This document shows positions 1,834 to 33,244 of a stretch of 45,243 nucleotides of DNA, piece by piece (the stretch's first letter is position 1; every line of letters starts with the position of its first letter). The notes beneath the pieces are model-generated. The model saw only the letters and a program-made list of their open reading frames with translations. It made no database searches and had not been told where the DNA came from. Source of the stretch: Escherichia phage vB_EcoS-CHD5UKE2; the sequence record NC_073059.1; one strand, 5' to 3'. The translations under genes were made by a program, and so were the position numbers.

Positions 1834-2256
1834 TCAGGCGCAACAGTTATACAGGACCGATACCACGATGCGGGCGCGGTCGTCATCTTCAATCACCGAA
1901 CTGGTGTATGGCGCGTCCTGAAGCTGGAAAGCCGCGCCAGCAATCTTGACGCCCTGCCACTTGGCTGACGTCGCGATGGCGTCCGCCAGTTCGCTCGCGT
2001 ACTGTGTGCCAGTGCCCGCAGGAAACACTACGGCAACCTGATAGACGCCTGCATAGATCCGGCCCTTCTGCTGAATGCCAACAAACTGGGTCGGGGCCGG
2101 AAGCAAGTACGGCTCCAGGTACACGCCATTGCCGTTAGCGTGGTCGCCCTTCACGTTCTCCCAGTTAACCTTGATCGGGCGCTGGTTAGTGCTCAGGCTA
2201 ACCGCTAATTCTTCTACTACGCTGTTAAACGCCTTGCGGATTAGAGTATTGCTCAT
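1834..2256 (-). CDS. Head-tail joining / tail completion protein (putative)
   Basis: 140 aa; position between connector genes and major tail gene; RBS AAGGTGA before ATG 2256. Confidence 0.4.
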   Translation of the reverse strand: MSNTLIRKAFNSVVEELAVSLSTNQRPIKVNWENVKGDHANGNGVYLEPYLLPAPTQFVGIQQKGRIYAGVYQVAVVFPAGTGTQYASELADAIATSAKWQGVKIAGAAFQLQDAPYTSSVIEDDDRARIVVSVLYNCCA

Positions 2257-2849
2257 TATTTCACCTTAGAATTGATTTCTGCCGCTACGACGCGAACAAT
2301 CCCCGCGGGCGCTTGTTTACTCCAGCCATACTCCAGTCGCTGCGCGTACGGCACGTTGTTAGTAAACCAGATAGACCCATATTCGCCAGAATCGTAATGC
2401 GCCAGCACGTCACGCCCCGCGGCTAATGTTGCCGTTCCAGCCTTGTCCACCCGGTCAACCGCGCCAACAGCCGGACGGTCGAAAGACACCTGCCAGTTTC
2501 CCCGGAAGCGTCCGCCGGTGTAGTTCTTCGCGGCCCAGCCACGCTGGCGGAACGTGACGTTGCCGTTTTTAGTCTTGAACGATACGAGGACACTGGCGTG
2601 CTTTTTCTGCCCGCGCTTCAGTTTGCCACCATTCTTACGGCGCTGTGCGGCGTTCACCTTGCTCGCGTGCTGGCGGGCCATCGCGTACGCCTTGTTTATC
2701 TTCCACCGGCGGGGGTCGCCCACCGGGGAGATCTCAATCAGGCGTCCGAGTATTTGCATACCGGTCGCCCGCACCGCCTTGTCGTTGTTCTCCTTCGTCT
2801 TATCTACCCATGTTGCAATGGTAGCGGCGAACGAGTAGACCTCAGCCAC
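2256..2849 (-). CDS. Head-tail connector / neck protein (putative)
   Basis: 197 aa; GTG start at 2849 with RBS AAGGGG; stop overlaps next start. Confidence 0.4.
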   Translation of the reverse strand: MAEVYSFAATIATWVDKTKENNDKAVRATGMQILGRLIEISPVGDPRRWKINKAYAMARQHASKVNAAQRRKNGGKLKRGQKKHASVLVSFKTKNGNVTFRQRGWAAKNYTGGRFRGNWQVSFDRPAVGAVDRVDKAGTATLAAGRDVLAHYDSGEYGSIWFTNNVPYAQRLEYGWSKQAPAGIVRVVAAEINSKVK

Positions 2850-2850
2850 G

Positions 2851-3204
2851 TTAGCCCCTTAGCTGTAATTGAAACAGCATGGTAGTGCCAGCCGGTTGCA
2901 GTGGGGTGGGATTGATAACACGGTAATCTGTGTTATTCAGGTTAACCAGATCGCCTACCTGCACTTGCTCCGCCGCCTGACATAAGAACTTAACATCACC
3001 GGCAATGACCCGAGTCCCGTCGATCTCACGAGGCTTGTACTCCTCTCGAAGCCCGATGATATCAAACGACGTTGGCGGGATTACTATCTCGTTGCCGTCT
3101 ACGCGGTCAACCGATCCAGGACGCGTCACGGTAACTGTCATGCCGAATTTTTTAATCAGCGGATTTACTTTCCGCTTTAAGCCTGCGTAGTCAAATCCCG
3201 CCAT
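2851..3204 (-). CDS. Head-tail connector protein (putative)
   Basis: ORF-track start 3288 gives an Arg-rich N-terminus; in-frame ATG at 3204 (MAGFDYAGL...) is more plausible. Confidence 0.4.
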   Translation of the reverse strand: MAGFDYAGLKRKVNPLIKKFGMTVTVTRPGSVDRVDGNEIVIPPTSFDIIGLREEYKPREIDGTRVIAGDVKFLCQAAEQVQVGDLVNLNNTDYRVINPTPLQPAGTTMLFQLQLRG

Positions 3205-3305
3205 CGTCTTCCTCCTTCGCCGGTACTTCCGGCGGTACTGGTTCTTCCTCTTTCTCTTTCGTCGCCAGCGCCGCCAGCAACGCTGCAATAACAGCCGGAT
3301 TCATA

Positions 3306-3806
3306 TTAGCCCCTGTATACGTCAAAGTTACCTGAAGCGTTGCCGTCTACGTTCACCCAGTAGCCCAGCAAGCCATCCCACCACGGGAACGCCACATATC
3401 CGCCAATCGTCGCGGGGTCATATTCCATCGTGATCGGGCCAACCGTTTCGCGAATAGTCTCTTTGCCACCGCCGATCGGAGAAATATCAATATCGTCCGC
3501 CACCAGCATCGCCAACCGGTAAACGGCTTGTTCAACGGCAACGGGAATTGATGCGAAGTCTACGATTTGCCCGGCAGGCACTACCGCCACAACTTCAGTG
3601 AGCGTGTCTCGCACCGGCTTACCGTCTGACGGGTAGTTGATGCGGGGCCATGCGTCGATTCCGGTCTGGTCCGCTTGTTCGCCGATCCAGTTGATGCCGT
3701 TAAGGAAGTCATTAACGATGGTAAGGTGTCGCGTTGCATCGCCCAGCGTAATCTCAACGCCTCGCGCAGCGGCATAATCAGTAAAGGTTTGCGGGTCGCC
3801 ATACAT
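3306..3806 (-). CDS. Head completion / connector protein (putative)
   Basis: ATG 3806 preceded by RBS AGGAG (8 nt); the longer ORF start at 3836 falls inside the capsid-gene terminator hairpin. Confidence 0.45.
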   Translation of the reverse strand: MYGDPQTFTDYAAARGVEITLGDATRHLTIVNDFLNGINWIGEQADQTGIDAWPRINYPSDGKPVRDTLTEVVAVVPAGQIVDFASIPVAVEQAVYRLAMLVADDIDISPIGGGKETIRETVGPITMEYDPATIGGYVAFPWWDGLLGYWVNVDGNASGNFDVYRG

Positions 3807-3827
3807 TTTATTCGCTCCTATAAAAAA

Positions 3828-3845
3828 GGCGGGCATAAGCCCGCC
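3828..3845 (-). terminator. Rho-independent terminator after the major capsid gene
   Basis: Hairpin ggcgggc-ataa-gcccgcc with T6 following on the minus strand. Confidence 0.6.
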
Positions 3846-3864
3846 CCTTTGGGATGTGCGCCGA

Positions 3865-4965
3865 TTAGGACGCGCTGGTCGGAGTCAGCGTAACCAGTAC
3901 GCCAGCCGTTTCCTTGATGTTACGGGTCGGCACGGCCTGTGCTGCCTGGGTCTTGCGACGGCCTTTAGTATCGCCATCACCCACCGCGCCAACATCCTGG
4001 ACGGTTGCCGGAGCGTTGTCTACCTGGCCCTGATCCAGCTCCCAGTTGTCCTTGGTGGTGATATCCGCCAGTGTGAACGAGCGGACACCTTCAACCGGAG
4101 TACGAGCGGACGCCTTCAGACGATAGCCTTTAACAGCCACGTTGAAGTCGAACTCACCCTGCCACCAGCGCTCGATGTTCTCGTTACCGCCTTTTTCCTG
4201 CGCCAGCATATCGAGGCCGTTGGTGGTAACTGCAACCGCGCCAGGGACCAGACCCAGCATTTTGCCCGCGCCCATAGCATCGGCAGCGGCATCGGAGATA
4301 ATGAAACGACGGCCCAGGCCATCACCCATTACTTGCAGATCGCCGATCGCGAATACCTGCTCAGCGGAAGGCAGCGCCTGGTACGCAATGAAGTTAGCCC
4401 AGGTAACGCCATCCATAAACCAGGACTTAATCAAAGACGCCTGATCGCCGAACTTAGAAGCCGCCAGAGGGAAGTCTGCCAGGGTCGGGAAAGTACGACC
4501 GCCAACGCCATCAACGCGCGCCGGTTGGGTGTATGCTGCCGCTGCGTTGCTTTCGATCGCCGCTTTACTTGCGCCGATACCGGCCTTCAGGTAATGCAGC
4601 ATAATCGCTTGAGTAGCCTGTGCCGCAATCTCAGCCGCAACGCTGTTAACGTTGGTTTCGATCTTAGCCATCATAGCCTTAGTGATTGCAACCGGACCCA
4701 CTTTCGCGGAGAGGTTAACCGAGTTGGTCAGCATACGCGCCAGCACTTTAGCGGTTGCCGGAGTACCGACAGGTGCATATGCGTTACGGTCAGTAACGAG
4801 GTTGGCGATCAAGCCGACGGACATTTTTTCTACAACGTCCTTCAGCACTTCACCTGTACCGAGAACAACAGCGCCATTAGCGGCAGCGTTGAACACGTTC
4901 AGGTTGTCGGGGATCATTTGCGTAACCGCGGTAACGAGTTTACGCTGGAACACTGTTAAAGACAT
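3865..4965 (-). CDS. Major capsid protein
   Basis: 366 aa directly downstream of the scaffold gene; RBS AAAGGA before ATG 4965; terminator after the gene. Confidence 0.65.
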   Translation of the reverse strand: MSLTVFQRKLVTAVTQMIPDNLNVFNAAANGAVVLGTGEVLKDVVEKMSVGLIANLVTDRNAYAPVGTPATAKVLARMLTNSVNLSAKVGPVAITKAMMAKIETNVNSVAAEIAAQATQAIMLHYLKAGIGASKAAIESNAAAAYTQPARVDGVGGRTFPTLADFPLAASKFGDQASLIKSWFMDGVTWANFIAYQALPSAEQVFAIGDLQVMGDGLGRRFIISDAAADAMGAGKMLGLVPGAVAVTTNGLDMLAQEKGGNENIERWWQGEFDFNVAVKGYRLKASARTPVEGVRSFTLADITTKDNWELDQGQVDNAPATVQDVGAVGDGDTKGRRKTQAAQAVPTRNIKETAGVLVTLTPTSAS

Positions 4966-5062
4966 ATCGAAATCCTTTGAGTTGTGAGCATTCGCCCAGT
5001 GACGTTAATGTTACCTTAGATTTACGCGCTCGCAAAATCGCCAGCTTTCGCGGGCGATCTGC

Positions 5063-5767
5063 TTACTCGTCGTCGCCCATCTTAGCGATGATATCCCCTG
5101 CCTGTTTCGTCAGGTCCGTGATACCGAAGCTATGGCCCATCGTGATTTTAGACTTCGCATCTTCGATAACCTGTGTCGGTTTGCTCGGAGCGCCACCAGC
5201 GGGCGTGCCAGCCAGGACGGATGCAAAATCAGCGTTATTACGGAACTCTTTTTCAAGCTCGTCCATAGTCAGCGCGGACGGTTTGCCATCCTGCAAGACA
5301 CGCACTTTCAAGCTGCCGTCTTCACCGTCTTCCAGCGCGAGGCGCTCCATTACGTGGCGTTGCATGATGCCAGCATTCTTACCAAACAGCTTCGATGCCA
5401 GGTCTTTGGCAGCGCTGCCGATAGTGAGGTCGTGGATCTGCTTGCGATAGGATTCGATTTTCCCCGATGTGTCTGCTTCGTGTTTTGCAAACTTATCCTT
5501 CCAAGACTTATCGATCGCTTCGAGGTCGCCATTTTTGCGCGCGGCGGCTTCCTCTTTCTCTTTCGCAAGGCGCTCGGCTTCGGCGCGGCGTTCAGCTTCT
5601 GCTTTCTTCTCGCTCACCAGCTTTGCGTTGTTGTCTTTCAGACCCTTGATTTCCGCCTGTACTTCCTCAGCGGACATAAATGTTGATTTATACCCGTCGC
5701 CATCGGCAACAAAAAGCGCCTTCATACCTTCCGGCAACGCGTCATATTCTGCTTTAGTAAGTTTCAT
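5063..5767 (-). CDS. Scaffolding protein
   Basis: Start revised to ATG 5767 (MKLTKAEYDALPEG...) with RBS AGGGGGA; charged coiled-coil segment (KKAEAERRAEAERLAKEKEE); lies before the capsid gene. Confidence 0.55.
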   Translation of the reverse strand: MKLTKAEYDALPEGMKALFVADGDGYKSTFMSAEEVQAEIKGLKDNNAKLVSEKKAEAERRAEAERLAKEKEEAAARKNGDLEAIDKSWKDKFAKHEADTSGKIESYRKQIHDLTIGSAAKDLASKLFGKNAGIMQRHVMERLALEDGEDGSLKVRVLQDGKPSALTMDELEKEFRNNADFASVLAGTPAGGAPSKPTQVIEDAKSKITMGHSFGITDLTKQAGDIIAKMGDDE

Positions 5768-5857: not shown

Positions 5858-5887
5858 TTGCAATCCTGGTATTGGTTGCACTATATT
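5858..5887 (+). promoter_or_regulatory. Sigma70-like promoter for the plus-strand island
   Basis: -35 TTGCAA (5858..5863), 18-bp spacer containing ATTGGTTGCA, -10 TATATT (5882..5887); second TTGGTTGCA at 5886..5894. Confidence 0.5.
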
Positions 5888-5922
5888 GGTTGCACACCAA
5901 CAGAGATATGAAGGAAAACAAA

Positions 5923-17447: not shown

Positions 17448-17640
17448 TGTTCAATCCTCTTGTTGGTGTGCAACCAATCTAGCAGGGTGCCAGGCTGAAT
17501 GCAACCAATATTAATCACGCGTATGAAAAAGCTGATCGCTATCTGCTGCAACTGCAAACTGCATTTTTCACTTCACATAACACAACTCGCATTGGTTGCC
17601 TAGTTCATCAACAACCGCGATTCACATCATGCTGCCGTAC

Positions 17641-17850
17641 ATTATGCAATCCCGGATTTTATGCAGTCTCAGACGAGGGGGGCCAACTGACCCCCGTCTA
17701 GTCTGAAAGACTGGGGTTTGTCCCGCCTGTCCCGCTCCCTCGCAAGCCGCGTAATCCGGGGCGGGACAGGGGTGCTGTCCCGCTTTGTCCCGCCCCCTGT
17801 CTGTCCCGCTTTTTGTCCCGCTTACTTTATGCAATAAAACTGCATAACTA
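17641..17850. repeat. Iteron-bearing structured element, copy B, between primase-helicase gene and the start of the late operon
   Basis: Same conserved blocks and hairpins as copy A, divergent central spacer; followed by AT-rich tttatgcaataaaactgcataactattcactatatttacac. Confidence 0.8.
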
Positions 17851-17927
17851 TTCACTATATTTACACTACACGGCAACCAATGCGACCAGCTAAAAACACT
17901 CAATTTGGCAACCAATGCGCGCAAAAT

Positions 17928-20189
17928 TTAATCTTTCAGGTCGTCATCGGTCGCTGAAAGCGTGATTGGGATATCCGATTTGATGACCAGATTCGACGAC
18001 CCATAGATGGCCCCGGTGTGTGGATCTGTATAAAAACCGAGCACGCCGCGCTCCACCATATCGTCGATTGCCTTCGTCGATGTGCCACCTTTCGCGAGTC
18101 CAGCCTGGCGGACAATTGCCGATTTACTGAATCCAGTATGGTCCGGGTTATCTTCCATCAGTTTCTCCAGTGCCGCATAAAGCACCTTCTCTTTTTCGTT
18201 GCGCGGTCCGGCGGTGTTCTCTTCCTTAACTGCTGCCTTGCCTGCGGCCTTCGCCTGTTCAATAGCGAACGGTGCCAGGGCGACCGGTACGAGGTAAAGA
18301 GTCTCGTCGCGTGGCGTGGATGCAATTGGCTTGACGTCCCAACCGGCAACCACATCGCCGAAGTCCGGACCGGTGCTGGTGGACTGGTGGGCTTCGAACG
18401 CCTCGGACTTACGGAGATCCACCTTCACCTTGCACTTGAGCAGGACGAAGCCACGCGGCGCTTGCTTAATCCCGTTACGGGATTTTTCGTGATACAGGTT
18501 GAGTTGGCCTGGCTGGTTGTCATCCGGCTGTTCCAGGAAGAACGCAGAATCAACAGCACCATGAAGCGCGCCGGACCCGCGTGGCGATCTGCTGCCGTTT
18601 GCGCCCTTAGCCGGGTGATGGATGACGCCCGCACTGCCACCTGTATTTTCCGCAATGGCCTTCAGCGCCTTGACCACTTCGCCCATATCGCTGGCGTTGT
18701 TCTCGTCGAACGGTTTGGCATCAGCGGACCGCAGCGCTACAGTCTGGTTGAGTGAGTCGAAGGCCACCAGGCCAACCGGCTCCCCGTTAGCGGTGCGGTT
18801 GATAAAGCTGATAACTTCGCGCAAGCCTGACTTGCTGGTAATATCCCAGCCGCGTGATTGCAGATCGACAATGTGCAGCTTGTCGAGGTCGTGCTCGTAT
18901 TTAATCTGCAATGCTTCCTTACGCTGGTTGGAGGCTTCGCCACCTTCCGCATCGAAATAGAAGTTATGGCACTGGACGACCTTCGCGCCACCAAACGGAA
19001 TACCGGCAGATACGGACGCCATCTGGCCCAGCACGTAGAACGACTTACCAATGTTCGACTCACCGGCAAGATACCAGGTCGATTTGAAGTTGACCAGGCC
19101 TTCGATGATCGGGTCGTGCTTACTGAATAGTGCAACAGGTTCGTTGTCCAGGTCAGCGTCGGTGCATTCGCCGTACTCGTCGCCGTCGCCGACCGCATCA
19201 ACAATATGTTCATAGCATGATTCCACTTCCTCGTCGTCCAGTCCCGGAAGGATGGCGGCGATTTGCTTGCGTGACATGTTGTGCGGTTCAACGTTCAAGT
19301 GGTCCGGGATACCGATCAGACGTAACGCCAGGTGCTGGTGTTTGTTCAGTTCGGAACAGCACTCGTTGCCGGTGTGCATACACTTGAAACGGATCTCGCC
19401 ATCCTTAACCATGATAGCCGTCGACCCGCCGCCGCTATGCAGGTGCTCGTTCGGGCACGGCACTTCATAACCGCGACCGGATGACAGTGGTTCAAAGCCA
19501 GCCTGGAAGCACCAGTCCAGAATCCCGTCCGCCACGCCATCGTCGCCCTGGGTCAGTTCGCGGCGTACTTCCTCTTTCTCCACTCCCAGCTTGTCAGCCA
19601 GGCGAAGCAGGCGACGGACACGGGCGCGCTTGCCAGGATGACACGACACGGTAGATCCGGAATGGGGGAGGAATTGCAGGTTGTTAACGTTTTTTGTGCA
19701 ATCATCAAACGGCACGTCTTCCAGCCCCAGGTGTTTCAATAGCGCGAACTGCGCACGGCCTAAATCGGAAACATCAACCGGTTTATCAGTGAGCACCAGG
19801 AAACGGGCGCAACGTGTGCCGCCCTTCAGCGGGTGGCGGTCGCCTGTAGTGGAGTAGTAGACGTGGGATAAGCCGGATTTGCGAAAGGCACGCTTAACGC
19901 GACCGAGGGTACGGTTGTCAGTGCGGTCCAGGTCATAGAACAGTACGGAACGGACACCTACTTCCGTAGCACGACGGCCTCGGCCTTTAGTGGTGGCGAC
20001 AATGCCTTCGGCCTTGCCTTTCACCTCGTCGTATTCTTTCTTAGTCTCGTCGCCGGTAATGGTTACGCTGGATAGCTCAACGGTATCCACGACGTATTCC
20101 ATAAACTCGGCTTCAGTCATAGAATGGTTTTTAACACGCTTGCCGTACTTACCACCAACGGTGCCGAACTCAATTAAATAGTTTTTCAT
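17928..20189 (-). CDS. DNA primase / replicative helicase (RecA-like ATPase domain)
   Basis: 753 aa; Walker A GESNIGKS in the C-terminal half; Cys/His cluster CPNEHLH...C in the N-terminal half. Confidence 0.6.
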   Translation of the reverse strand: MKNYLIEFGTVGGKYGKRVKNHSMTEAEFMEYVVDTVELSSVTITGDETKKEYDEVKGKAEGIVATTKGRGRRATEVGVRSVLFYDLDRTDNRTLGRVKRAFRKSGLSHVYYSTTGDRHPLKGGTRCARFLVLTDKPVDVSDLGRAQFALLKHLGLEDVPFDDCTKNVNNLQFLPHSGSTVSCHPGKRARVRRLLRLADKLGVEKEEVRRELTQGDDGVADGILDWCFQAGFEPLSSGRGYEVPCPNEHLHSGGGSTAIMVKDGEIRFKCMHTGNECCSELNKHQHLALRLIGIPDHLNVEPHNMSRKQIAAILPGLDDEEVESCYEHIVDAVGDGDEYGECTDADLDNEPVALFSKHDPIIEGLVNFKSTWYLAGESNIGKSFYVLGQMASVSAGIPFGGAKVVQCHNFYFDAEGGEASNQRKEALQIKYEHDLDKLHIVDLQSRGWDITSKSGLREVISFINRTANGEPVGLVAFDSLNQTVALRSADAKPFDENNASDMGEVVKALKAIAENTGGSAGVIHHPAKGANGSRSPRGSGALHGAVDSAFFLEQPDDNQPGQLNLYHEKSRNGIKQAPRGFVLLKCKVKVDLRKSEAFEAHQSTSTGPDFGDVVAGWDVKPIASTPRDETLYLVPVALAPFAIEQAKAAGKAAVKEENTAGPRNEKEKVLYAALEKLMEDNPDHTGFSKSAIVRQAGLAKGGTSTKAIDDMVERGVLGFYTDPHTGAIYGSSNLVIKSDIPITLSATDDDLKD

Positions 20190-27405: not shown

Positions 27406-27579
27406 ATGATTGAAGAAAAACGTTGCAGTAACTGCGGCTGCATCAAGCCGCTATCCCAGTTCCACAAATACACCGGAAAGACTGCGCGCAGTCCAGACGG
27501 GCATCGGGCCGAGTGCAAATCGTGCCGCAATAAGAAAGAACGTGATCGGCAGCGCCGCTATCGCGCAGAACAAGAATAA
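27406..27579 (+). CDS. Zinc-ribbon small protein
   Basis: ATG 27406; CSNCGC ... CKSCRNK four-Cys arrangement; 57 aa. Confidence 0.4.
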   Translation: MIEEKRCSNCGCIKPLSQFHKYTGKTARSPDGHRAECKSCRNKKERDRQRRYRAEQE

Positions 27580-27615
27580 TCAATACGGCGGGCTTGTCCC
27601 GCCATTTTTGGAGGC

Positions 27616-27844: not shown

Positions 27845-29269
27845 ATGGCACGATTCCGACGTCGCGAATATCAGAAATTGATAACCGCGTTTATTCTCAA
27901 GCATGAGCGCTGCAATATTTGGGCGACAATGGGGTCCGGTAAAACCGGCGCGACTATGTGGGCGCTAAACAAAATGTTCCAGACTGGCATCCTGTCCAAC
28001 CAGGAGGACCGCGTACTGGTGCTGGCCCCGCTGCGCGTTGCGTCCGGTACGTGGCCCCCGGAACAAGAAAAATGGAGATTCCCCGCCCTGCTGGTAGTAG
28101 ACGGCACCGGGCCAGAGAAGGACCGCATTGCGGCGCTTGAGAGCAACGCTAACGTGGTTTGTGTCAACTACGATGTTGTTGAGTGGCTTGTCGAGTATTG
28201 CGGCGACGAGTGGCCTTTTACGGTCGTTGTTGCCGATGAATCCACTAAGCTGAAAGGCTATCGCAGCAAGCAAGGCAGTAAGCGCGCACGCGCACTGGCG
28301 GCGATCGCACATAAGCACGTCAGGCGCTGGATTAACCTGACCGGCACACCAGCACCAAACGGACTGAAAGACCTATGGGGCCAGACGTGGTTTGTCGACG
28401 GTGGCGAACGACTCGGCAGTAGCTATAAGGCATTCACCGATCGCTGGTTTATTAGCAAGCCTGTTAAGCCAGGCAGCTTCACTATGCAGCACGCCCCGCT
28501 AAAGAACTCCGAGAAGGAGATCCAACAGCGCCTGTCCGATGTATCCCTTACCGTGGACGCGGCTGAATACTTCGGATGTGACAAGCCAATCTACACGCCG
28601 GTTGTCGTGGACCTGCCGAAGAAAGCCCGCAAGATTTATGACCAGTTTGAGAGTGAGCTATTTGCCGAACTGGAAAGCGGAACAGTGGAAGCGGCGAACG
28701 CTGCGGCTAAGACCATCAAGTGCCTTCAGCTTGCATCCGGTGCCGTGTATAAGGTGGACGAAGACGGAGAGCGGACCGACGAGTGGGAGAAGATTCACGA
28801 CGCCAAGCTGGACGCGCTGGAAAGTATCGTAGAGGAGTTGAACGGAGCGCCGTTGCTCGTTGCGTACCAGTACAAGCACGACCTGGCACGTCTGAAGAAG
28901 AAGTTTCCCCACGGCGTTGCGATGGGTAAGGGTAAGCAGGGCAATAAGGATATGGAAGCGTGGAACAGGGGCGAGATTCCCATCATGTTCGCACACCCGG
29001 CATCGGCTGGTCACGGCCTTAACTTGCAGGACGGCGGTCATCACCTGGCTATCTTCTCGGATACGTGGAACTATGAGCACTTTGCGCAGATCGTGGAGCG
29101 TATCGGGCCAGTTCGCCAGATGCAAGCCGGGCACCCTCGACCGGTATTCGTCTATATTATCCAGGCACGCGGGACACTGGACGAACTGGTGGCGGACCGC
29201 CGCGATGGTAAGCGCGACATCCAGGACGACTTGATGGAATACATGAAAGCTAAGAAGGTGCGCAAGTGA
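27845..29269 (+). CDS. SNF2-family DNA helicase
   Basis: Start revised to ATG 27845; Walker A GSGKTG, DExx box VADEST, LTGTPAPN motif. Confidence 0.7.
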   Translation: MARFRRREYQKLITAFILKHERCNIWATMGSGKTGATMWALNKMFQTGILSNQEDRVLVLAPLRVASGTWPPEQEKWRFPALLVVDGTGPEKDRIAALESNANVVCVNYDVVEWLVEYCGDEWPFTVVVADESTKLKGYRSKQGSKRARALAAIAHKHVRRWINLTGTPAPNGLKDLWGQTWFVDGGERLGSSYKAFTDRWFISKPVKPGSFTMQHAPLKNSEKEIQQRLSDVSLTVDAAEYFGCDKPIYTPVVVDLPKKARKIYDQFESELFAELESGTVEAANAAAKTIKCLQLASGAVYKVDEDGERTDEWEKIHDAKLDALESIVEELNGAPLLVAYQYKHDLARLKKKFPHGVAMGKGKQGNKDMEAWNRGEIPIMFAHPASAGHGLNLQDGGHHLAIFSDTWNYEHFAQIVERIGPVRQMQAGHPRPVFVYIIQARGTLDELVADRRDGKRDIQDDLMEYMKAKKVRK

Positions 29270-29961
29270 TTATCTGGTCATTATTTGACGGCAGCGGCTT
29301 GATGATAGAGCGCGCTGCCGAGATGGGGCATAAATGCTACTGTTTCAACTACTCGGAAGCCGATCACGGGTCTTACCTTGACTACCGGATTTATGGTCGC
29401 GGTATCCGCTATCGTAACGAGTTTATCGATCTGGACTTCGTGGACCGCGCGATGAATGGCGATTTCGGCACGCCGGATATTATCTACGCGTTTCCGCCGT
29501 GTACGGATCTGGCGGTGAGCGGTGCGCCAGCTTTCCCGTGCAAGCGTGCGAAAGACCCCGCCTTTCAGCTTAAGGCAGTGCGCACCGCGAAGATTGCCGC
29601 TTACCTGGGTGACTTCTTTGAAGTGCCATATATGATTGAGAATCCGCGCAGTGTGCTATCCACCCAGTGGCGCAAGCCAGACCACTCGTTTGATCCGTGG
29701 GAGTATGGCGGCTATCTGCCGGAGGATGACGTACATCCGTTGTTCCCGGAATACATCAACGACCGCGATTCATATCCAAAGCTGACCTGTTTATGGGCTG
29801 GCAATGGCTTTCGTATGCCGGAGAAAAAGCCGGTATTCGTTGAAAAAGGGTACTCGAAGCAGTATAGTCGCCTCGGTGGCAAATCTGCCCGCACCAAATT
29901 AATACGGTCGCTCACTCCGCGCGGCTTCGCAATAGCAGTCAATGAGGAAAATTTAAAATGA
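29266..29961 (+). CDS. Short DNA (cytosine-5)-methyltransferase-like protein
   Basis: GTG start overlapping the helicase stop, RBS AAGGTG; motif I-like LFDGSG, motif IV-like FPPCTDLAVSG (catalytic Cys retained), motif VI-like MIENPR; only 231 aa. Confidence 0.45.
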   Translation: MIIWSLFDGSGLMIERAAEMGHKCYCFNYSEADHGSYLDYRIYGRGIRYRNEFIDLDFVDRAMNGDFGTPDIIYAFPPCTDLAVSGAPAFPCKRAKDPAFQLKAVRTAKIAAYLGDFFEVPYMIENPRSVLSTQWRKPDHSFDPWEYGGYLPEDDVHPLFPEYINDRDSYPKLTCLWAGNGFRMPEKKPVFVEKGYSKQYSRLGGKSARTKLIRSLTPRGFAIAVNEENLK

Positions 29962-30281
29962 ACACTACATTCGAAGCCATCGACTTCTCGGTCGCAATGA
30001 CTAACCAGTTATTCACCTATGACAGCAAAACCGGCGTCATCCGTCTGAAGTCCACCGGCTGCAAGATTGGCAACCTTAACACTGCCGATGGCGGTACGCG
30101 TATCGAATGCAACGGCAAGAAGCTGTCTGGCGCGCGCGTGGCGTGGATTATCGAAACCGGCAATACAATCCCTCCAGGCTTCGCAGTTGTGTGTCGCCAG
30201 CGCACGCCAGGGCACTACGGCAACCGAATGAGCAACCTTTATCTGGTAGATGTAGCGCGCGACCCGAATTTTTATGAATAA
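29958..30281 (+). CDS. Small HNH-endonuclease-like protein (weak)
   Basis: Spacing of Gly, His and Asn residues (…RVAWIIETGNTIPPGFAVVCRQRTPGHYGNRMSNL) loosely resembles phage HNH_3 domains. Confidence 0.3.
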   Translation: MNTTFEAIDFSVAMTNQLFTYDSKTGVIRLKSTGCKIGNLNTADGGTRIECNGKKLSGARVAWIIETGNTIPPGFAVVCRQRTPGHYGNRMSNLYLVDVARDPNFYE

Positions 30282-30318
30282 ATTGGTTGCGTAATTAGAT
30301 TGGTTGCATTATCTTAAG

Positions 30319-30350
30319 GGTGTCCGGTTGGACGCCCTTTTTAATACCTG
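30319..30350 (+). terminator. Terminator-like hairpin in the leader of the following gene
   Basis: gggtgtcc-ggtt-ggacgccc followed by TTTTTAAT, sitting between TTGGTTGCG/TTGGTTGCA boxes and the RBS. Confidence 0.4.
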
Positions 30351-30361
30351 GAGACAACACG

Positions 30362-30826
30362 ATGAAAATTTTACAAGAAGAAAAAGCATACTGGGCCGCG
30401 CAATGCCTCGAAGCCCGTGAACAGGCCGAACGCGCGAACGCGCTGGCGGACACCAACCAGGCGCTATATGAAGGAGAGAAGAAAGTGCGCCGGGAGTTGG
30501 AGGAACGCTTCGAACTGCTTTTCGAATTGATGGGGATTATGCAGCGCACCGGATACACAACCAGCGTTGCGCTAAACCGCATCACTGCCGAAGGGCTGCG
30601 GGAACATTGCAAACGTGCGGAGGAGTACGTGCGACCTAAAGGTAGACAGTCTAAGGTTGATCGTAAAGATTTGGTGCTTGTGGCGTGGCACAATACTCAG
30701 ACGGGTAGCTACTACCCGGATGCGCGCCCACGTAGTGAAGAGGACGCAAAGCGCGTGCATCGCATAGTCGGCAAATACGAAAAGATTGCCCTATACGCAC
30801 TGGACCCGCAGAATGACGAAGAGTGA
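30362..30826 (+). CDS. Hypothetical protein
   Basis: ATG 30362 with RBS GGAGAC; 154 aa. Confidence 0.5.
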   Translation: MKILQEEKAYWAAQCLEAREQAERANALADTNQALYEGEKKVRRELEERFELLFELMGIMQRTGYTTSVALNRITAEGLREHCKRAEEYVRPKGRQSKVDRKDLVLVAWHNTQTGSYYPDARPRSEEDAKRVHRIVGKYEKIALYALDPQNDEE

Positions 30827-31298
30827 GCAAAAAGATAGCTGGCGTACGCCGCCAGCTTTATTTAAACCGCTTCGTAAGAAATACCGATTCCGTTACGATA
30901 TGGCGGCAAGCGACACCAATCACCTGCTACCGCGCTACTTCACGGCGGAGCATAGCGCGCTTGAGGCGGACTGGTCAGAGTTGAAAGGGTGGAAGTGGTG
31001 CAATCCGCCGTACTCCGATCCGCTGCCGTGGGTCGAGTGCGCTGCGCACGGACGCCGTACTGTCATGCTACTGAATCAGGACACGTCAACGAAGTGGGCG
31101 AGGCTGGCCCGGAAGACTGCCAATATGATAATTCTTCTGGACTGGCGTGTGCGATTCATCCATGCTGTGACCGGCGAAGTTGGGCCGAGCAATAATAAGT
31201 GCCAGCAATTGATAATATTTGACGAAGCGCCGCCCACCGGCAGCGCACAAATTGAAATAATGAGCGAGAGTGAGCTACATGAATATCTTAATCGTTGA
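30813..31298 (+). CDS. DNA N6-adenine methyltransferase (phage Dam-like)
   Basis: Catalytic NPPY motif (WKWCNPPYSDP) and N-terminal WRTPPALF; start uncertain between 30786 and 30813. Confidence 0.6.
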   Translation: MTKSEQKDSWRTPPALFKPLRKKYRFRYDMAASDTNHLLPRYFTAEHSALEADWSELKGWKWCNPPYSDPLPWVECAAHGRRTVMLLNQDTSTKWARLARKTANMIILLDWRVRFIHAVTGEVGPSNNKCQQLIIFDEAPPTGSAQIEIMSESELHEYLNR

Positions 31299-31503
31299 CC
31301 GCGACCCTGCGGTAGTAGACCTGATACAAAAAGACTATGGAATCGACCCGCGGCATAATCGTGTGCTGCGCGTGTCGCGACCTGAATCCATCATGGGCCT
31401 CGACCTTACCGGCTGGCTTGTCATGACCCAGCGATGCCATTTCGTATGCAACTCCTTTACTGCGCGAAGCGCCCGTCACACCCTTATTGAGAGCTTAAAA
31501 TGA
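31270..31503 (+). CDS. Hypothetical small protein
   Basis: 77 aa ORF overlapping both neighbours; start uncertain. Confidence 0.35.
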   Translation: MSYMNILIVDRDPAVVDLIQKDYGIDPRHNRVLRVSRPESIMGLDLTGWLVMTQRCHFVCNSFTARSARHTLIESLK

Positions 31504-31970
31504 AACTACTGATTTGTGATCTGGATGGCGTTATTAATGGTTCAAGTGATGCGCGTGCTGACCTGGTGCCCGGCATAAAAACCAAATCAACATTTTGGGC
31601 GAAGTGGCACAAAGCACACGTACGCGAAGACCTTAACATGGATATGTTGCCGCTGCTGCGCATGTACAAAGGGCAAGGCTTCGAGATAGCGTATCTGACT
31701 AACCGGCAGCGCGAATGCTGGGATACGACCGCCAAGCAATTGGAAGTATTCCCGACGGGCCGGTTGTTCATGCGCCACATGCTGGACGACACCCCACCGC
31801 CAGAATTTAAAGCATGCGCGGTGGTCAAAATGGTTTGCTATGCGGACGTGTCCGAACTGGTCATCATTGAAGACTGCGCTAAGAATATTGACGCCATCCG
31901 TCGGGCGTGCAGCGATATGGTCCCTAAAATTTATTCTATAAACGTAGCAAAATTTACTTGCAACCAATAG
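31500..31970 (+). CDS. HAD-superfamily phosphatase (possible nucleotidase)
   Basis: N-terminal LICDLDGVI (HAD motif I DxDG); 156 aa. Confidence 0.5.
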   Translation: MKLLICDLDGVINGSSDARADLVPGIKTKSTFWAKWHKAHVREDLNMDMLPLLRMYKGQGFEIAYLTNRQRECWDTTAKQLEVFPTGRLFMRHMLDDTPPPEFKACAVVKMVCYADVSELVIIEDCAKNIDAIRRACSDMVPKIYSINVAKFTCNQ

Positions 31971-31987
31971 GTTGGTTGCACTATAGT
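31958..31987 (+). promoter_or_regulatory. Sigma70-like promoter with perfect inverted repeat TGCAACCAA-N5-TTGGTTGCA
   Basis: -35 TTGCAA (31958..31963), 18-bp spacer, -10 TATAGT (31982..31987); the palindrome spans both. Confidence 0.55.
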
Positions 31988-32668: not shown

Positions 32669-33244
32669 ATGTACGGCGAATACGAAATAACCGGTAAACA
32701 ATTCCACATAGCGGCAATGTTGGCGAGCGTCGAGTTTGACCAGTGGCGATTAAAGTCTGACGCGTGCAAGCAAAGCCGACTTGTCGGTGTGCTGGGCGAG
32801 ATGTTTGCTGGCATGTACCTTGAAGGGCAGGCAGGCGGGCGTAGTTGTATCCCGCAAGGCTTGCTTATGCGTACCGGCCTGTTTAGCGCCAATACTATCG
32901 ACCGCGGCGATATTATCATGGTCGGTAAACGCAAGGTTAAGTCCGGCCCCGACTTCCGTGAGCACATGATTGATGCTGTCTGGACCTACGAGGTCAAAGC
33001 CACCAGCGGCATCCGTCGCGGACTGGTAGAGGCGCGTTGCGCTCGCGAGTATCTCACCCGTCGGGTTGCCGGTGTTATCCTGGTGGGCGTATCGTTCGGG
33101 CAACATAGCGCACACGGCGTGATTGAGGATATTGCGGAACCATACGTGATTGTCAACGACTGGCCTCTGGTGGAAGTGGAGGGCAAGGAATATTACGAAA
33201 GCCCGTTAGTACGGCGCAAAATGGACTGGGAAAACTCAAACTAA
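32669..33244 (+). CDS. Hypothetical protein, possible PD-(D/E)xK-type nuclease
   Basis: 191 aa; weak D...EVK-like motif (DAVWTYEVKAT); RBS GAGGG. Confidence 0.35.
   Translation: MYGEYEITGKQFHIAAMLASVEFDQWRLKSDACKQSRLVGVLGEMFAGMYLEGQAGGRSCIPQGLLMRTGLFSANTIDRGDIIMVGKRKVKSGPDFREHMIDAVWTYEVKATSGIRRGLVEARCAREYLTRRVAGVILVGVSFGQHSAHGVIEDIAEPYVIVNDWPLVEVEGKEYYESPLVRRKMDWENSN

Follow-up and report, generated by a model that had tools for sequence, protein, structure and literature searches.

Can a protein of 231 amino acids (aa), with little space for recognising a target, methylate cytosine in DNA, and does it work as one unit with the genes that follow it? The question is raised by a locus of Escherichia phage vB_EcoS-CHD5UKE2 (NC_073059.1). 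The window is the whole 45,243-nucleotide stretch, and all coordinates refer to it. A first-pass annotation had described 29266-31298 as a DNA-modification-like cluster, made of a truncated C5-cytosine methyltransferase-like open reading frame (ORF) at 29266-29961, an HNH-like ORF, a Dam-like adenine methyltransferase and a HAD phosphatase. The region 27000-33300 matches 160 phage records by megablast, nearly all of them Dhillonvirus siphophages of E. coli. It is a DNA-replication and DNA-metabolism gene block, a standard part of this well-sampled genus. The region and its methylase annotations are already known and present in more than 140 sequenced Dhillonvirus genomes. We think it quite probable that this replication block carries two independent orphan methylases that protect replicating phage DNA, one of them a minimal C5-cytosine enzyme. 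What is established here is the gene structure, the fold as modelled, motif conservation, purifying selection and homology to an experimentally active enzyme.

Motifs and predicted fold of the 231-aa protein

The 231-aa protein has motifs I, IV and VI of the C5-cytosine methylases in canonical order. Motif I is F7-D-G9-S-G11, the loop after the first beta strand that binds S-adenosylmethionine (AdoMet). F7, S10 and G11 are invariant across 30 homologues, and G9 is found in at least 90% of them. Motif IV is P77-P78-C79, which holds the catalytic nucleophile, and motif VI is E125-N126-P127. Both are invariant in the 30 homologues. A wider alignment of the family has 74 members at 33-55% identity, and its motif I consensus is SLFDxTG. 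C79, E125, P127, P144, Y170, W177 and P185 are invariant there, while F76, P77, N126, K172, R214, S215, P218 and G220 are nearly so. The last four of these lie in the C-terminal segment R214-S-L-T-P-R-G220.

The AlphaFold model of the protein (predicted local distance difference test, pLDDT, 90.1; predicted template modelling score, pTM, 0.89) has seven beta strands in the class I methyltransferase order. A Foldseek search of the PDB ranks the catalytic domains of DNMT3A and DNMT3B first (E about 4e-7, probability 1.00). Against viral models the nearest neighbours outside the family are also cytosine methylases. As modelled, the fold is class I Rossmann and closest to the solved C5-cytosine methylases. 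Between the last strand (174-179) and the C-terminal helix (219-229) there is room for only about 35-45 residues, a segment that is conserved across the family, not variable. The variable target-recognition domain that usually occupies about 80-150 residues between motifs VIII and IX was not found in the protein. The first-pass annotation was right that AdoMet-binding and catalytic-Cys motifs are retained, and right that there is no room for a target-recognition domain.

The small space for target recognition is what the protein shares with the DNMT3A and DNMT3B catalytic domains, more so than with the bacterial type II enzymes. It must be noted that the identity is about 15%, and that the DNMT3 domains are about 50 residues longer and keep motifs VIII-X. 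They also act on CpG as DNMT3L-assisted tetramers.

A large family of short enzymes

The protein has 2,212 homologues in a set of 5.8 billion proteins. There are 1,911 matches among the representatives of clusters at 50% identity, and 1,508 phage records have matches. These records spread over Dhillonvirus, Drexlerviridae (including the Klebsiella Webervirus), Vequintavirinae, Jerseyvirus, Kagunavirus and Vibrio phages. Among the matches listed the homologues are 225-250 aa long, a few shorter fragments aside. Since these lengths are uniform, 231 aa is the norm of the family and not a truncation, and the first-pass label of a truncated enzyme was misleading. Ten longer relatives were checked for Pfam domains and none was found, so the fusions give no functional clue. 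The orthologue in the model phage SECphi18 is 98% identical.

Selection on the block was estimated as pairwise ratios of nonsynonymous to synonymous substitution rates (dN/dS) against two relatives that are about 89% identical. The ratio is 0.02-0.03 for the 231-aa methylase and 0.04 for the helicase upstream of it, so the methylase is at least as constrained as the helicase. It is 0.06 for the HNH-like ORF, 0.09-0.10 for the Dam-like gene and 0.04-0.05 for the HAD phosphatase. The least constrained gene of the block encodes a 154-aa protein (0.17-0.22). The E-values of these genes (Table 1), together with ratios of 0.02-0.10, show that they are real functional genes and not chance ORFs.

An active homologue

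The experimental anchor for the family comes from retron Ec86. Every escape mutant of phage K42 carries a disrupted copy of a 711-bp dcm gene, and the K42 genome is 95.4% identical to that of KarlJaspers (Bas06) (bioRxiv 10.1101/2023.08.16.553469). Expressed alone, K42 dcm shows toxicity with the retron but none without it. LC-MS (liquid chromatography coupled to mass spectrometry) found high 5-methylcytosine (5mC) in the multicopy single-stranded DNA (msDNA) of Ec86 with the wild-type gene, and the retron was triggered. The C82A/E128A/K175A/K176A mutant neither raised 5mC nor triggered the retron, and the empty vector gave no rise in 5mC (all from bioRxiv 10.1101/2023.08.16.553469).

The 711-bp 'Dcm-like' product of KarlJaspers is 53% identical to the 231-aa protein over residues 2-231 (E 5e-84). 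The two belong to the same family, are 236 and 231 aa long, and are each encoded by a stand-alone gene in a replication module. C82, E128, K175 and K176 of K42 align with C79, E125, K172 and L173, so that the catalytic Cys, the Glu and the first Lys are at equivalent positions. The phages themselves are different, since K42 and KarlJaspers are Drexlerviridae (Hanrivervirus). The 231-aa gene also differs from theirs in its translational coupling, to an SNF2 helicase gene on the upstream side and to an HNH-like ORF on the downstream side. Because the K42 enzyme alone forms 5mC and is homologous to the 231-aa protein at this level, the short Dcm-like family is, by analogy, an active and self-sufficient C5-cytosine DNA methylase. 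From this homology we infer that the 231-aa protein itself would methylate DNA and would trigger the retron. The first-pass annotation had listed a minimal methylase among its options, and this is the one that the fold, the invariant Cys and Glu and the published 5mC formation favour.

The Dam-like enzyme and the proposed role of both methylases

The second methylase is a genuine and ordinary member of PF05869, judged from its sequence. It scores 125.2 bits against a cutoff of 28.1 and has the motifs DMAAS and WCNPPYS, which bears out the Dam-like adenine methyltransferase with NPPY of the first-pass annotation. The TIGR01712 score is 87.8 bits, under the equivalog cutoff of 97.05, and PADLOC calls the protein an 'orphan methyltransferase' (E 2e-11). 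Its identity is 40% with the Dam of Edwardsiella phage eiAU-183 and 27% with that of Klebsiella phage KP36. The likely start is the ATG at 30813 (161 aa) and not the TTG at 30786, because this agrees with the annotated orthologues. The protein shares NPPY with the phage Dam family (T1, TLS, KP36 and HP1-type), but it is shorter than the Drexlerviridae versions, which have 233-243 aa. GATC is the target of its characterised relatives. By analogy with these the enzyme would make N6-methyladenine (m6A), most likely at GATC.

We propose the following scenario. The 231-aa protein would be an autonomous AdoMet-dependent C5-cytosine methylase, one of a large phage-specific family of minimal enzymes that keep the seven-stranded Rossmann domain, with Lys172 in place of the motif VIII arginines. 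Both methylases would be expressed with the replication genes and would methylate replicating phage DNA. Progeny from any host, dcm- or dam- hosts included, would then be fully marked with 5mC and m6A. Marked progeny would resist restriction enzymes whose sites overlap the methylated motifs, and the protective role we give to both methylases is meant in this sense. The cost would be that retron Ec86 (Eco1) senses cytosine methylation by the short Dcm-like family.

The cytosine target is taken to be CCWGG in the literature, an assumption by analogy that we carry over with reserve; the name 'Dcm-like' is an annotation and not a demonstrated CCWGG specificity. 5mC in the CmCWGG context makes no RmC site for McrBC. 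This would suit phages isolated on wild-type K-12. KP36 is relevant here. Its gp74 (17553-18245, minus strand) is a member of the short family and is 44% identical to the 231-aa protein. KP36 DNA is refractory to EcoRII and cut by DpnI, and its authors, who concluded that the phage encodes no cytosine methylase, explained the EcoRII resistance by the host enzyme (PMC3620542). A cytosine methylase was thus judged missing although a homologue of the short family is encoded. The EcoRII resistance and gp74 are consistent with CCWGG methylation but are no proof of it. CCWGG occurs 149 times and GATC 156 times in the window. Neither is strongly avoided, and these frequencies say nothing about the specificity of the methylases.

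Points against the proposal

Several results weigh against this scenario. Neither the QxRxR of motif VIII nor a GN-type motif X, GN(A/S)V, is recognisable in the 231-aa protein or in the family consensus, and K172 sits where the canonical arginines of motif VIII are expected. E. coli Dcm, M.HhaI and M.HaeIII have both of these motifs as well as a target-recognition domain. The 231-aa protein is about 100-240 residues shorter than they are and has no significant sequence-profile relation to them. A Pfam scan of it gave nothing, PF00145 included, even at E 0.1. NCBIfam gave no match, and neither did PDB sequence searches (phmmer and hmmsearch) with the protein or its family profile. Comparisons of the family by hhalign with relatives of E. 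coli Dcm, with eiAU-183 gp16 alone and with the eiAU C5-methylase family were not significant (the family alignments were built from 80 and 13 viral loci). At the level of function, the fourth residue changed in the K42 mutant, the second of its two lysines (K176), corresponds to a Leu in the 231-aa protein, at a position that is variable in the family. The CCWGG target was assumed by analogy with host Dcm, its sole support being the mutation of the CC of CCTGG in the msDNA stem, and the retron experiments used a dcm+ host, the Dcm of which is evidently no trigger of the retron (bioRxiv 10.1101/2023.08.16.553469). No methylome data for Dhillonvirus or Drexlerviridae were found in the literature. 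Lastly, the BASEL phenotyping shows Dhillonvirus phages to be comparatively sensitive to restriction-modification (RM) systems, with no simple link between methylase genes and resistance.

The searches that fail on the 231-aa protein fail on its family generally. A precomputed PF00145 match exists for 3 of 120 listed homologues, and the family is often left 'hypothetical' since Pfam, NCBIfam and PDB sequence searches miss it. A PADLOC scan of the 231-aa protein also gave no match. The profile searches that the first-pass annotation proposed as a check came out divided: PHROG 757 ('DNA methyltransferase') recovers the protein well, but Pfam, NCBIfam, PDB sequence searches and hhalign return nothing significant. 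A permissive hhalign run against the E. coli Dcm relatives does place motifs I, IV and VI collinearly, though at E 0.052 and probability 1% it is non-significant. The same alignment pairs RSLTPRG with RRLTPRE, the motif IX of the Dcm relatives, and we treat this mapping as a lead only. The BASEL results bear on the benefit. Since Dhillonviruses are RM-sensitive, the protection is probably narrow.

How the short enzyme could find its target

One can imagine that enzymes of about 230 aa are the smallest autonomous class of DNA C5-cytosine methylases and recognise DNA in a non-canonical way. We consider this unlikely but give it some weight. Such an enzyme may have a relaxed or very short target, or it may prefer single-stranded or hairpin DNA. 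A preference of this kind would explain why msDNA is marked by the phage enzyme and not by host Dcm. Another option is that DNA engagement may be borrowed from a partner, for which the SNF2 helicase and the HNH-derived protein are candidates. The analogies are the SNF2-coupled DNMT5 and a helicase-methylase fusion in an uncultured phage.

This fusion deserves mention on its own. BFVD entry A0A6J5SE15, from an uncultured Caudovirales phage, is a 1,397-aa protein with a UvrB-type helicase annotation and a domain that is 27% identical to the short methylase. By its sequence it seems to echo the coupling of helicase and methylase genes seen here.

Two orphan methylases or one cassette

The first-pass annotation suggested that the four genes may form one anti-restriction or DNA-modification module. 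The coupling it reported between the methylase and the SNF2 helicase is present in the sequence: the GTG start of the 231-aa ORF overlaps the TGA of the helicase as GTGA within AAGGTGCGCAAGTGATT, and an AGAAGG Shine-Dalgarno-like element lies upstream of the ORF. Three features are missing from the first-pass annotation: the gene for a 154-aa protein (30362-30826), the gene for a 74-aa protein (31279-31503) and a terminator hairpin (30318-30342). The terminator divides the set. The helicase, the Dcm-like gene and the HNH-like ORF stand before it, while the 154-aa gene, Dam, the 74-aa gene (a Ksap1 homologue), the HAD phosphatase and onward follow in a second unit of tightly overlapping genes (Table 1). 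The HAD phosphatase is real (DLDGV, PHROG 415), but it lies at 31500-31970, outside the 29266-31298 span that was said to contain it.

Other phages disperse these genes. Dam is about 7 kb from the Dcm-like gene in KarlJaspers and about 8 kb in KP36. Vequintavirus inoa, Jerseyvirus horsemountain, Vibrio phage K435 and the Drexlerviridae have the Dcm-like gene but no HNH-like ORF with it. Because the terminator splits the genes, because they are dispersed elsewhere, and because the intervening genes are unrelated or have no assigned role (one is Ksap1), a single dedicated modification cassette is not supported. Searches of the neighbouring proteins with Pfam, NCBIfam and PADLOC turned up no restriction-endonuclease family, so both methylases are orphans. 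The locus is best described as a replication module that contains two orphan methylases. Their neighbours in it are the HNH-like ORF, the 154-aa protein, Ksap1 and the HAD phosphatase, and nothing ties these to methylation. What the first-pass annotation observed is thus confirmed, and its interpretation is partly supported.

The Dcm-like gene adjoins replication genes in four phage lineages: helicase, primase (or primase/helicase) or polymerase. This placement fits methylation of replicating DNA. It could also be taken to mean that the methylases chiefly serve the phage's own DNA transactions, by marking replicated DNA, evading MutH or Vsr, or timing packaging or transcription. The helicase-methylase fusion agrees with such a role, and so does the sensitivity of Dhillonviruses to many restriction systems. 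However, the idea has no direct support, and most E. coli already supply Dam and Dcm. We regard it as very unlikely to be the chief role, and it is in any case compatible with a protective one.

The HNH-like ORF and the question of a nuclease partner

The 107-aa HNH-like ORF overlaps the methylase stop by ATGA. As the first-pass annotation had it, the HNH similarity is weak. PHROG 99 ('HNH endonuclease') matches, a Pfam scan gave no match, and a PDB profile search gave chance matches only. Its relatives show faint similarity to HNH_3 (E 0.29, one relative) and to I-HmuI_NUMOD-like (E 3e-4). The position of the catalytic 'DH' of HNH_3 reads C-R-Q-R. The invariant H86, N93 and N104 could be a shortened HNH motif, to judge by the alignment. 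With only near-identical homologues to draw on, the AlphaFold (AF2) prediction came out too poor to use (pLDDT 44.5). The ORF adjoins the methylase in 160 of 160 Dhillonvirus records, which marks it as part of the fixed gene core of the genus rather than a mobile homing endonuclease. The I-HmuI and HNH_3 homing endonucleases are sporadic and mobile. The 107-aa ORF is constrained in Dhillonvirus, much shorter than they are, without a Pfam-level match, and does not conserve the position of the catalytic His.

A homologue that is 38-40% identical exists in eiAU-183. There the syntenic block at 1852-5382 has a helicase, the HNH-like homologue, a 330-aa PF00145-type C5-methylase and a PF05869 Dam. 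By hhalign, no profile similarity could be detected between the 330-aa methylase and the short enzyme of Dhillonvirus. From the sequences this looks like a non-orthologous replacement, in which the locus kept a C5-methylase and exchanged the gene family.

Two ideas about the ORF were rejected. The segment 'TGNTIPPGFA' resembles the GNAVPP of motif X and might have supplied it in trans, but its Asn is not conserved in relatives and the segment fits the usual 'G.iP.G..V' pattern of HNH_3. Nor is the ORF an obligate partner of the methylase, since KarlJaspers, KP36, inoa, K435 and horsemountain have the methylase gene without the ORF beside it.

The 191-aa protein at 32669-33244 (+; PHROG 10558) is encoded by the last gene of the plus-strand block, with dN/dS of 0.04-0.06. 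Its orthologue is called 'restriction endonuclease' in one GenBank record, and by eye it has a D...YEVK pattern like that of PD-(D/E)xK nucleases. A nuclease identity finds no support in Pfam, PADLOC or PDB sequence searches.

One could argue that the methylase and either of these neighbours form an RM-like pair that cuts unmethylated host or competitor DNA and spares the methylated DNA of the phage. The ATGA overlap in every Dhillonvirus record, the strong constraint on the HNH-like gene, the partnership of its eiAU-183 homologue with a different C5-methylase and Dam, and the GenBank label on the 191-aa orthologue all lean that way. However, the 'DH' position is altered and only faint HNH_3 similarity is left, the Dcm-like gene does without the ORF in Drexlerviridae, Jerseyvirus, Vequintavirus and Vibrio phages, the enzyme of K42 is active on its own, and the 191-aa protein lacks support as a nuclease. 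An RM-like pair is highly improbable in our view.

Other substrates and products

The first-pass annotation also offered an inactive decoy and a nucleotide-modifying enzyme. In the same vein the 231-aa protein might be an AdoMet sink, or might act on free nucleotides or on RNA like Dnmt2, and so be no DNA 5mC methylase. Both options are disfavoured. Across the family neither the catalytic Cys and Glu nor the AdoMet loop varies, and dN/dS is among the lowest values here. The 53%-identical homologue forms 5mC in DNA in dependence on its catalytic residues, and DNA methylases rank above Dnmt2 in the fold searches. We see little likelihood in any of these. Least credible of all is that the enzyme adds a non-methyl group (such as carboxymethyl from carboxy-S-adenosylmethionine, Cx-SAM) or starts a cytosine hypermodification with the HAD phosphatase and the DUF6378 protein, because the match behind it is a shared fold at 16% identity, no CmoA-like, TET, glycosyltransferase or kinase genes were detected in the cluster by Pfam, PHROG or NCBIfam, LC-MS on the K42 homologue found 5mC itself, and Dhillonviruses are RM-sensitive, unlike hypermodified phages.

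Gene order and neighbouring genes

The top megablast match of the region is Escherichia phage vB_EcoS-101114BS4 (98.5% identity over 100% of the query). Gene order was compared with the annotated relatives Oekolampad (Bas18), Haito (Bas83), WF5505, UDS3lw and SECphi18. The common order starts with DNA polymerase, a VRR-NUC nuclease, two small genes and the DNA helicase. It continues with the 'Dcm-like C5 cytosine methyltransferase', a 'putative homing/HNH endonuclease' and one or two small genes, then the 'Dam-like N6-adenine methyltransferase', the 74-aa gene and a 'putative phosphatase/polynucleotide kinase'. It ends with the DUF6378 protein and the 191-aa protein, after which come tail-fibre genes on the opposite strand.

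Table 1. Features of the methylase locus, in coordinates of the window
Feature	Position	Strand	Evidence
SNF2-family DNA helicase, 474 aa from the ATG used in annotated orthologues	27845..29269	+	SNF2-rel_dom E 1.2e-10; PHROG 62 E 6e-156
C5-cytosine DNA methyltransferase (by homology), short phage 'Dcm-like' family, 231 aa	29266..29961	+	PHROG 757 E 5e-81; motifs
HNH_3 / I-HmuI-derived ORF, 107 aa	29958..30281	+	PHROG 99 E 3.5e-15
Intergenic control region: repeats and hairpin terminator	30282..30342	+	sequence; WF5505 terminator annotation
154-aa protein, PHROG 10530; opens second transcription unit	30362..30826	+	PHROG E 9e-88
N6-adenine DNA methyltransferase (by homology), phage Dam family PF05869, 161 aa	30813..31298	+	PF05869 E 2.8e-36
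Ksap1 homologue, 74 aa	31279..31503	+	82% identical to SECphi18 Ksap1
HAD-superfamily phosphatase, 156 aa	31500..31970	+	PHROG 415 E 1.6e-34; DLDGV

The 74-aa Ksap1 homologue sits between the Dam and HAD genes, in agreement with the gene position given in PMC11564622. Klebsiella pneumoniae Avs2 senses Ksap1 and is activated by it (PMC11564622). Two proteins of the cluster are thus used or probably used as infection signals, the Dcm-like enzyme by retron Ec86 and Ksap1 by Avs2. These immune triggers matter for predicting the host range of therapeutic Dhillonviruses.

The HAD phosphatase has its motif at D7-L-D-G-V. Its match to Pfam Acid_phosphat_B is under the cutoff (E 3e-4, 20.7 against 27), and that to a class-B acid phosphatase in the PDB is weak (E 0.047). 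In sequence the protein is similar to the phosphatase part of polynucleotide kinase/phosphatase. The 154-aa protein has no Pfam, NCBIfam or PADLOC match. By eye its N-terminus is helical and coiled-coil-looking and it has no ligase KxDG motif, and the 'DNA ligase' label of PHROG 10530 looks like annotation drift.

The intergenic region after the HNH-like ORF has two direct copies of ATTGGTTGC(G/A), at 30282-30291 and 30299-30308. They are followed by the GC-rich hairpin GGGTGTCC-GGTT-GGACGCCC at 30318-30337 with a T-run to 30342, and in WF5505 a terminator is annotated at the matching position. An Rfam scan of the whole window found no RNA family. Oekolampad, Haito and others have an extra 243-nt ORF between the HNH-like and 154-aa genes (local coordinates L001:4867-5109 and L002:4863-5105). 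It is missing in NC_073059.1 (30282-30361), WF5505, UDS3lw and SECphi18.

The 10-mer ATTGGTTGCA occurs 16 times in the window with at most one mismatch, against 3.35 expected, and none of 100 shuffles reaches 16. Examples are at 5871-5894, 17469-17509, 30282-30308 and 31959-31980. The copies are tandem or palindromic pairs at several sites, the inspected sites are gaps between genes, and there are copies at both ends of the Dam-containing gene string. From this pattern the 10-mer is probably a phage promoter or operator mark.

Just upstream of the helicase unit is a gene for a 57-aa protein (27406-27579, +). It has a CxxC...CxxC pattern that is zinc-ribbon-like by eye and no library match. Its labels vary by record: 'Lar-like restriction alleviation protein', 'HNH endonuclease' and 'kilA anti-repressor'. 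A terminator-like hairpin follows this gene at 27587-27603.

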